This document shows, piece after piece, positions 15,124 through 16,109 of a stretch of DNA of 64,000 bases; within the stretch, counting starts at the first letter, position 1, and every line of letters begins with the position of its first letter. A model generated the notes under the pieces. It was not told where the DNA came from. It did no database searches and worked only from the letters and a program-made list of their open reading frames with translations. The position numbers and the translations under genes were made by a program. The stretch lies in sequence record PQ471516.1; one strand, 5' to 3'. The DNA comes from Escherichia phage Turkey5.

Positions 15124-16032
15124 TTAAGCTGCACTTACAACATAAGTACATTCAGCAGTATGTGAACCATCAACTGTAGTTACGATAACACTAGCATTAC
15201 CTTCACCAACTAATATTACAAAACCTGTTTCAGATACGGTTAGTACATCGTCATTAGTACTTGACCATACAACATCTTTGTTAGCTGCATTATCAGGCAG
15301 AACCGTTGCAACTAGTAATTCAGTACCACCAATTGGGCCATTACTTGATGTTTTACTTAAAGTAACACCAGTAACTGGGGTATTGACAACATATGCACAA
15401 GATGCTACTTTAGAGCCATCAACTGTTGTTGCGTTGACTGTTGCAGAACCGTTACCAACTAGAGTTACTAATCCAGAATTAGACACTGTGAGTACTGCGT
15501 CATTAGTACTTGACCATACAACTGATTTATTTGTTGCATTTTCAGGTAATACAGTTGCAACTAGTGTTTCAGAACCACCAATCGGACCATTACTAGAATT
15601 TTTATTCAATGAAATACTTTCGACTGGAACAACAACTGCGACATACTTAGTCGCGTACTTACCAGTTTGTACTTCATTGCCATTAGTAAGAATTACTTTA
15701 TGGGTGAAAAATTTATATGCAAAACCGAGTGCTTCCATAGTTGTTGCATCATATACTTTAACAGCGAATTCATCACGACCAAGTGCACTTGCAATTTCTT
15801 GGGCAGTGGCTGATAAATCAAGTAGGTTACGATTTTTATCTCGACCAACCATTGATACTCTTTGATAAACAGTAGTTGAATCACTATCAACTAAGTCAAA
15901 CATGCGAGTACTACACTCGTTGATAATGTATAGTTCTTTATCAATTTCTTGAGCACTGTGATCAGTTGCTGCAAAAACACAGATACCACCAACGTTGAAT
16001 GGCAATTCACCAAATTTAGCTATAGGCTTCAT
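15124..16032 (-). CDS. protein with two tandem bacterial Ig-like (Big_2-type) domains, probable virion decoration or adhesin protein
   Basis: only substantial minus-strand gene; C-terminal half is two ~85 aa repeats (SLNKNSSNGPIGGSETLVATVLPENATNKSVVWSSTND...); AGGAG RBS; TATAAATA motif upstream. Confidence 0.6.
   Translation of the reverse strand: MKPIAKFGELPFNVGGICVFAATDHSAQEIDKELYIINECSTRMFDLVDSDSTTVYQRVSMVGRDKNRNLLDLSATAQEIASALGRDEFAVKVYDATTMEALGFAYKFFTHKVILTNGNEVQTGKYATKYVAVVVPVESISLNKNSSNGPIGGSETLVATVLPENATNKSVVWSSTNDAVLTVSNSGLVTLVGNGSATVNATTVDGSKVASCAYVVNTPVTGVTLSKTSSNGPIGGTELLVATVLPDNAANKDVVWSSTNDDVLTVSETGFVILVGEGNASVIVTTVDGSHTAECTYVVSAA
15130..15640 (-). repeat. intragenic tandem duplication (~255 nt x2) encoding the two Ig-like domains
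   Basis: nucleotide and protein-level repeat visible within the minus-strand gene. Confidence 0.6.
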
Positions 16033-16063
16033 TTGCTTCTCCTATCAATAGAATTATTTTAAT

Positions 16064-16071
16064 TATTTATA
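16064..16071 (-). promoter_or_regulatory. T4-type late promoter motif TATAAATA (minus strand)
   Basis: exact TATAAATA about 30 nt upstream of the minus-strand start codon. Confidence 0.4.
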
Positions 16072-16080
16072 AAATTCAGG

Positions 16081-16109
16081 TTGACAAACATCAACAATCC
16101 TAATACAAT
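16081..16109 (+). promoter_or_regulatory. sigma70-like promoter TTGACA-17-TACAAT
   Basis: consensus -35 with 17-nt spacer, upstream of gene at 16141. Confidence 0.45.

Follow-up and report, generated by a model that had tools for sequence, protein, structure and literature searches.

The head decoration protein pb10 of phage T5, a late and dispensable type of protein, consists of an N-terminal capsid-binding domain followed by a C-terminal immunoglobulin (Ig)-like domain, and in phage T4 the non-essential protein Hoc provides the T4-type particle with an Ig-domain array that is expressed from a late promoter, TATAAATA, and has been proposed to mediate weak adherence. Here the analysis concerns a gene on the minus strand, at 15124..16032, of a 64,000-nucleotide (nt) stretch of Escherichia phage Turkey5 (PQ471516.1; hereafter the window, to which all coordinates refer unless stated otherwise). 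The gene encodes a 302-amino-acid (aa) protein with an N-terminal domain (N-domain) and two Big_2 Ig-like domains, and an earlier note made from the sequence alone had proposed that it specifies a late capsid or tail decoration protein. The presence of relatives in virions supports this proposal, and the protein is best read as a late decoration protein of the virion surface, anchored by its N-domain and displaying its Ig domains outward, with a probability of roughly three in four; the choice between capsid and tail is left as the earlier note had it.

The window protein has the same order as T5 pb10, an N-terminal anchor and then an outward Ig-like domain, but its N-terminal domain does not have the pb10 capsid-binding fold and the two proteins are not homologous. 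Like T4 Hoc, it combines an Ig-domain array with a TATAAATA-type late promoter, whereas in Hoc the Ig domains are N-terminal and the capsid-binding domain C-terminal, the reverse of the arrangement in the window, and no Hoc match was obtained in Pfam, PHROG or PDB searches of the window protein. Homology of the Big_2 domain was found with two chains from solved phage heads, PDB 9kmh (“Decoration protein gp29”) and 9kzj (“BIG2 domain-containing protein”), with E-values of 8.5e-4 and 3e-3, respectively, query aa 134-217 aligning with chain residues 157-246. In these proteins the Big_2 domain likewise lies behind a different N-terminal region, but the alignment is confined to the Ig domain, and the first 150 residues of the chains do not resemble the N-domain of the window protein. 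In gp116 of Enterococcus phage EfV12-phi1, an example of the Herelleviridae proteins of PHROG 215, three Big_2 domains stand behind about 130 N-terminal residues of non-Ig type; its Ig region is 39% identical to that of the window protein, and its N-terminal region is unrelated to the N-domain (hhalign probability 0.2%). A tblastn match suggesting Herelleviridae homology over query residues 42-302 was rejected, as residues 42-130 were merely stretched onto an Ig domain (BLASTP). With intimin/invasin only the Big_2 repeat aligns (E about 0.008), and Invasin_D4 scored 17 bits against a cutoff of 27. Syntenic genes of RaK2-like phages share both the N-domain and the inverted position; they differ in the number of Ig domains and in N-domain identity, which is 28-40% for the closer relatives and 58% for Salmonella phage Munch.

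Domain architecture of the protein

The gene and its domains are as follows.

15124..16032, minus strand: coding sequence (CDS) of 302 aa with an ATG start, from the list of open reading frames (ORFs); presumed N-terminal anchor domain and two Big_2 Ig-like domains
15649..16032, minus strand: N-domain, aa 1-128, mostly beta-strand with one helix, presumed virion anchor
15382..15630, minus strand: Big_2 Ig-like domain 1 (Ig1), aa 135-217 (PF02368 match at aa 136-212; bounds by hmmsearch)
15133..15381, minus strand: Big_2 Ig-like domain 2 (Ig2), aa 218-300, probable lineage-specific tandem duplicate of Ig1

The C-terminal half had been described as two Big_2-like repeats of about 85 aa that are also visible as a nucleotide-level duplication. 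This was confirmed, with units of 83 aa and a repeat period of 249 nt; the best stretch of 205 nt (15164-15368 against 15413-15617) is 76% identical, and the whole Ig1 and Ig2 units share 71% nt identity and 67% aa identity. Pfam Big_2 (PF02368) gave two matches (E 8.8e-27, 93.3 bits against a gathering cutoff of 22.8), alignments of the Ig region with Big_2 domains of known structure included 7quz (E 2.7e-13), and the protein matched phrog_215, “structural protein with Ig domain” (E 2.1e-48). An AlphaFold2 model built on a 30-sequence alignment had a mean predicted local distance difference test (pLDDT) score of 91, with a low-confidence linker at residues 128-131. The stretch aa 135-300 is modelled as beta-strand throughout, mostly at a pLDDT of more than 90; this and the two Pfam matches are consistent with the expected Ig-like fold.

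The first 130 residues had no match in Pfam, and the N-terminal domain had none in the PDB. The N-domain did match two PHROG families annotated as “virion structural protein”, phrog_33171 (E 4.3e-18, aa 1-118) and phrog_10468 (E 6.8e-14, aa 2-129), and when modelled alone it reached a pLDDT of 87 and a predicted template modelling (pTM) score of 0.82.

Syntenic relatives and their presence in virions

The 3.5-kb stretch around the gene shares 98.8% DNA identity with Escherichia phage vB_EcoM_JNE01 (JNE01), a 355.6-kb jumbo myovirus filed under Asteriusvirus, and beyond JNE01 the phage collection contained almost no DNA-level match to this stretch. Judged by its sequence, the window is from a RaK2-like jumbo coliphage. 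The 302-aa protein is 97% identical to JNE01 WOL22654.1, which is annotated only as “hypothetical protein”. In seven other RaK2-like phages the gene was found at the same inverted position, downstream of the genes for ClpP and dCMP deaminase within a metabolic gene block. Comparison of repeat number across related phages had been put forward as a check, and the number indeed varies, from 0 to 9 Ig domains.

CBB: CBB_112, 218 aa, 1 Ig domain
BF: BF_0105, 301 aa, 2 Ig domains
GAP32: GAP32_111, 303 aa, 2 Ig domains
K64-1: gp635 (listed together with RaK2 gp496), 212 aa, 1 Ig domain
Munch: gp133, 224 aa, 1 Ig domain
ph0011: 01040, 890 aa, 9 Ig domains
phAPEC6: gp347, 125 aa, 0 Ig domains

Two of these relatives have been detected in purified virions by mass spectrometry, CBB_112 with 4 unique peptides and 24% coverage (PMC5259590) and phAPEC6 gp347 with 8 peptides and 75.2% coverage, the highest coverage in the phAPEC6 table and level with that of the major capsid protein (PMC7247149). 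The assignment of the window gene product to the virion is thus borne out through its relatives. As gp347 consists of the N-domain alone and is found in the virion, the N-domain suffices for incorporation, which makes the Ig domains accessory. The isolated, inverted late-gene layout may be typical of the N-domain family.

Late promoter motif

The earlier note had placed an exact T4-type late promoter motif about 30 nt upstream of the start codon on the minus strand. The element was found there, 31 nt from the ATG, and is unique in the 64 kb. The upstream elements of the gene and the other sites of the core motif ATAAATA are as follows.

16039..16043, minus strand: Shine-Dalgarno sequence AGGAG, 6 nt ahead of the ATG (sequence reading)
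16064..16071, minus strand: T4-type late promoter element TATAAATA, an exact 8-mer, 31 nt between element and ATG
20687, plus strand: ATAAATA site, 120 nt ahead of a gene without a family match
28858, plus strand: ATAAATA site preceding 28898..31597, an 899-aa gene whose family has no known function
38670, plus strand: ATAAATA site preceding the tail fibre gene 38731..39342, which is followed by the tail-protein gene 39344..42133
59141, plus strand: ATAAATA site preceding the tail sheath gene 59198..61861
62206, plus strand: ATAAATA site preceding the tail tube gene 62221..62934

Expected motif counts were obtained from dinucleotide-preserving shuffles. The single copy of TATAAATA on both strands of the window (128 kb) compares with 7.4 +/- 2.5 expected, at least one copy being present in 100 of 100 shuffles. 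Of the core ATAAATA there are 6 copies where 28.4 +/- 5.5 would be expected, an approximately five-fold depletion, and all six copies are intergenic (intergenic sequence making up about 10% of the window) and co-oriented with the next gene (P about 1e-6). Avoidance of the motif except before a few, mostly virion genes is the signature of a functional late promoter. Late expression of the gene, as first proposed, is therefore supported by the motif statistics and by the tail-match genes that directly follow three of the five other ATAAATA sites. Nor is the plus strand purely early, as it carries the genes for tail fibre, sheath and tube (38.7-42.1 kb and 59.2-62.9 kb).

The same motif is reported for CBB and GAP32; in CBB it precedes structural genes at 35 sites, and it was proposed as the late promoter of this phage group, its resemblance to the T4 late promoter being noted (PMC5259590). 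CBB also encodes a gp55-like sigma factor (CBB_244), with homologues of gp33 and gp45 not found there (PMC5259590), and phAPEC6 encodes a phage sigma factor. Upstream of the syntenic genes, TATAAATG is located at about -29 in CBB, BF and GAP32, and TATAAATA at -45 in ph0011.

The 899-aa gene at 28898..31597 is adjacent to a second gene of about 900 aa, 32214..34940, on the same plus strand; both belong to phrog_3573 (E 3e-241 and 1e-227, respectively), a family of unknown function. In phAPEC6 and 121Q, arrays of genes closely related to one another have been noted, to which the two may belong.

A lone minus-strand gene between a terminator and an opposing promoter

The gene at 15124..16032 is the only credible minus-strand gene of the window. 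This claim of the earlier note is upheld by three observations: the gene is the sole minus-strand CDS in the first 90 kb of the JNE01 annotation, each of the window's other minus-strand ORFs of 90 aa or more overlaps plus-strand ORFs, and the GC skew, which averages +0.09 over the window, is negative across 15124..16032. GC skew is negative over just one other long stretch, 2601-3700; this was considered as the site of a second minus-strand gene and rejected: the plus-strand gene there matches phrog_29057, and the minus-strand ORF nested in it is without a match. Six-frame searches of the window with hidden Markov models (HMMs) of the N-domain and the Ig domain revealed no paralogue of either beyond this gene. 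The homologue search returned 751 matches at E <= 1e-5, and the N-domain was common to 32 among the 120 matches listed. The N-terminus MKPIA is invariant in the alignment of 30 homologues.

The signals that separate the gene from its neighbours are as follows.

15092..15120, both strands: bidirectional intrinsic terminator, A7-GGGAGC-TTGT-GCTCCC-TTTTCT (inverted repeat, from sequence and folding)
16081..16109, plus strand: sigma-70-like promoter TTGACA-17-TACAAT, facing 16141..16743 (promoter scan, 11/12 matches, best in 14-17 kb)

The terminator was missed by a simple consensus scan and was found by direct folding. Its stem arms, GGGAGC (15099-15104) and GCTCCC (15109-15114), enclose the loop TTGT and form a 6-bp GC-rich stem lengthened by A-U pairs. 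In the minus transcript the fold has an energy of -18.3 kcal/mol (z -4.4) and is followed by U7, and in the plus transcript the values are -17.1 kcal/mol and z -3.1, with UUUUCU behind the hairpin; the bidirectional terminator that had been proposed is thus corroborated by the fold energies on both transcripts. As the hairpin lies between the converging genes 14825..15085 (plus strand) and 15124..16032 (minus strand), it can terminate both. Hairpins of the same type are present downstream of the syntenic genes of CBB and phAPEC6. At the other end, the 108-nt region upstream of the ATG carries TATAAATA on the minus strand and TTGACA-17-TACAAT on the plus strand, back to back, in agreement with the divergent promoter region described earlier.

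The N-domain family

In a comparison with predicted viral structures, matches to the N-domain were confined to proteins of RaK2-like phages, apart from weaker ones in uncultured phages and in the Agrobacterium jumbo phage Atu_ph07. When 1.84 billion representative proteins were searched with a profile of the domain, 97 cluster representatives were obtained, in nearly all of which the match begins at residues 1-3; the shortest, of 124 aa, consists of the domain alone, and the longest has 1,859 aa. The longer proteins bear 5 to 7 Big_2 domains, or Big_1 or Invasin_D3 domains, or Ig domains of the HYDIN type. The nearly constant location of the N-domain at the N-terminus, with between none and seven or more Ig-type domains of varied families behind it, points to a fixed module carrying an exchangeable Ig array. 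Alignments define the family by a domain of some 125 aa right at the N-terminus, an MKPIA start and the invariant residues P11, F12, G16, D46 and L47, to all of which the window protein conforms. Among cultured phages the N-domain was found in 59 records, all from phages that infect Enterobacterales or Xanthomonas and mostly longer than 300 kb, and most of these records hold two or three copies each.

A further family member in GAP32, GAP32_475 (377 aa), has the same N-domain and is annotated as a virion structural protein. Its gene is also a lone one, inverted with respect to all its neighbours, and lies among small hypothetical genes and tRNAs (GAP32 locus coordinates 5995..7128).

Evolutionary history of the unit

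When 52 Ig domains from 30 family members were placed in a neighbour-joining tree, Ig1 and Ig2 of the window protein were sisters inside the clade of first domains, whereas in most other relatives with two domains the second is of a type of its own, which forms a separate clade. The sister relationship is suggestive of an Ig duplication specific to this lineage, in a tree weakened by the shortness of the domains.

Comparison with JNE01 further revealed a mosaic patch inside Ig2.

15215..15325, minus strand: mosaic patch of 111 nt containing 24 of the 29 nt differences from JNE01

Divergence from JNE01 is about 21% in the patch and about 1% in the rest of the gene and in its flanks, and the codon differences along the whole gene comprise 17 synonymous and 9 non-synonymous ones. 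Gene conversion from Ig1 was rejected as the origin of the patch, since both alleles are 76% identical to their own Ig1 and hence equally distant from it. A diversity-generating retroelement also appears unlikely, as the differing codons are mostly synonymous and the differences between the repeats are concentrated at third codon positions; reverse transcriptase was not searched for. The patch looks like a recombination tract imported from a third, diverged allele, the predominance of synonymous differences favouring an imported allele over positive selection.

Similarity to related phages is discordant between the gene and other genes of the window. The N-domain shares 58% identity with that of Munch, 40% with phAPEC6 and 28% with ph0011, whereas the tail tube protein shares 95% identity with both phAPEC6 and ph0011 and 76% with Munch, and the flanking dCMP deaminase 84% with ph0011 and 74% with Munch. 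In addition, the unit lies two genes further downstream in the window than in phAPEC6 and ph0011: the pair 14089..14751 and 14825..15085 is upstream of the inverted gene in the window and on its other side in ph0011 (locus coordinates 3766..4700). The phAPEC6 homologue of 14089..14751 is also on the other side (locus coordinates 3667..4275), and its partner is not annotated. The gene order indicates a local rearrangement around the inverted unit. Taken together, the discordant similarity and the two-gene shift suggest that the gene at the ancestral position was replaced or reshuffled, and the gene in the window looks exchanged, either between lineages or by swapped paralogues.

A recent foreign origin was not supported by base composition, the GC content of the gene (36-38%) being native to the window (36.4%). 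The suggestion of an independently acquired cassette can therefore be kept in part only: the inverted position is ancestral in the RaK2-like group and the composition is native, but the gene itself looks exchanged, as judged from its greater N-domain identity to Munch than to the closer relatives.

Neighbouring genes

The genes around the inverted unit are as follows.

10424..11119, plus strand: ClpP
13071..13547, plus strand: full dCMP deaminase
14089..14751, plus strand: second protease (PHROG match, phrog_26024), judged ClpP-like by sequence
14825..15085, plus strand: small gene whose hydrophobic stretches suggest a membrane protein
16141..16743, plus strand: HslV-family peptidase (PHROG match, phrog_1040), the next plus-strand gene

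Protease-type genes thus cluster at the locus (10424..11119, 14089..14751 and 16141..16743, all on the plus strand), with genes for a Sir2-like (16963..17730) and a Nudix (17727..18278) protein alongside. In addition to the full deaminase, a 122-aa ORF at 24795..25163 (plus strand) gave a partial dCMP deaminase match (phrog_174, profile positions 144-222 of 384); the local GC skew is negative, and the ORF may be a fragment or a divergent small paralogue.

Location on the particle and alternative explanations

Within the decoration reading, the balance tips somewhat towards the capsid surface rather than the tail, at roughly 60:40. To judge by its high coverage, gp347 is present in many copies on each particle, which fits the capsid slightly better without proving it. 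Both phAPEC6 (10-Å map) and 121Q have a second capsid protein layer and a protein at the hexamer centre from which fibres emerge, with no gene assigned. A more specific proposal, put forward tentatively as possible rather than probable, is that the N-domain is a RaK2-like-specific capsid-docking module that accounts for density in the T=28 capsid of 121Q/phAPEC6, for example at the hexamer centre, that it anchors arrays of 0-9 Ig domains that have been swapped, duplicated and recombined, and that the whole forms a self-contained late unit mobile between intergenic positions and genera. Several points weigh against a late decoration protein located on the capsid. The functional evidence comes entirely from relatives, with N-domains 34-40% identical to that of the window protein. 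In the 120 nt upstream of phAPEC6 gp347, at 4381..4500 of the phAPEC6 locus, there is no ATAAATA, though this protein is abundantly detected in virions, and the promoter is therefore not universal at this position. The capsid of a related Klebsiella jumbo phage, phiKp24, which may or may not have a homologue of this gene, was modelled at 4.1 Å from the major capsid protein alone (PMC9700779). The tail of phAPEC6, too, carries decoration that has not been assigned to genes (PMC7247149). No structure of an Asteriusvirus virion, or of another RaK2-like one, at a resolution high enough to place the protein was found in the literature searched.

The last-mentioned tail decoration, at two levels of the phAPEC6 tail and as fibre rings on the sheath (PMC7247149), is one of the reasons to consider that the protein decorates the tail instead, on the sheath rings, the collar or the baseplate periphery, with sheath or collar subunits as the docking site of the N-domain. 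Big_2 domains are frequent among the tail proteins of the PHROG list, CBB_112 was grouped with the tail proteins in CBB (PMC5259590) and several database records label relatives as “major tail protein”. These labels, however, stem from Big_2 similarity to siphophage tube proteins and not from localization, the gene is not adjacent to the tail genes of the window, and a capsid site occupied in many copies would account no less well for the coverage of gp347, which equals that of the major capsid protein; a tail location is thus the less probable of the two but a serious contender. Taken literally, the same label would make the protein the major tail (tube) protein, carrying its Ig domain at the C-terminus like lambda gpV, as in the RefSeq annotation of CBB_112, K64-1 gp635 and others. 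The PHROG “major tail protein” matches on which this could draw cover the Ig region only, the N-domain has no match to a tube-like fold, and the window has a separate tail tube gene (62221..62934) and its own sheath gene, so that “major tail protein” is rejected as a tube assignment and this alternative is considered very improbable.

A role as primary receptor-binding adhesin of the invasin/intimin type, setting the host range, would agree with the label “invasin/intimin-like” given to the proteins of Munch and SE_PL, with the suggested part of RaK2 gp496 in phage-host interaction (PMC3622015) and with the hypervariability of the Ig2 patch between two near-identical phages. It is nevertheless unlikely, as the similarity to intimin is limited to the Big_2 fold, the protein has neither a lectin-like tip domain nor a beta-barrel, the phAPEC6 version lacks Ig domains and the phage still infects E. 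coli, and the mostly synonymous differences in the patch point to an imported allele. The merely hypothetical status of the gene in JNE01 could, finally, be taken to mean a chance ORF or a non-structural late protein outside the particle. This is scarcely credible for a gene with hundreds of homologues at E <= 1e-5, an invariant N-terminus, a GC skew favouring the minus strand, a Shine-Dalgarno sequence, a promoter and a terminator, and with two relatives detected in virions.

Proposed role and implications

For a late surface decoration protein, the motifs and their context suggest the following course. Early/middle plus-strand transcription would stop at the hairpin at 15092..15120 and restart at the promoter at 16081..16109. 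Late in infection, host RNA polymerase with a phage gp55-like sigma factor would recognize TATAAATA at 16071..16064, and the minus strand would be read as a single-gene message of roughly 1 kb, ended by the same hairpin. To judge from the relatives, the 128-aa N-domain would dock the protein onto the assembled particle, with the two Big_2 domains projecting outward as a short flexible arm, estimated at roughly 8 nm. By analogy with T4 Hoc and T5 pb10, the protein would be non-enzymatic and would serve weak, multivalent adherence to cell-surface or mucus glycans rather than an essential structural role. The Ig array would act as an exchangeable display module that appears to have grown by tandem duplication in this lineage.

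The family in PHROGs, the two virion proteomes and the late motif of the phage group are already known, and the current understanding is not overturned. The analysis assigns a likely role to a gene which in JNE01-type phages is annotated only as hypothetical, and it corrects the labels “major tail protein” and “invasin/intimin-like” on related genes. The depleted ATAAATA motif, linked mostly to virion genes, provides a simple late-gene marker for this phage group. The N-domain, which is without a known fold, is a candidate for the unassigned decoration densities of Asteriusvirus particles. It could also serve as a display scaffold for jumbo phages, as Hoc does for T4. If the tentative proposal of a capsid-docking module is true, N-domain genes would be a natural display platform.

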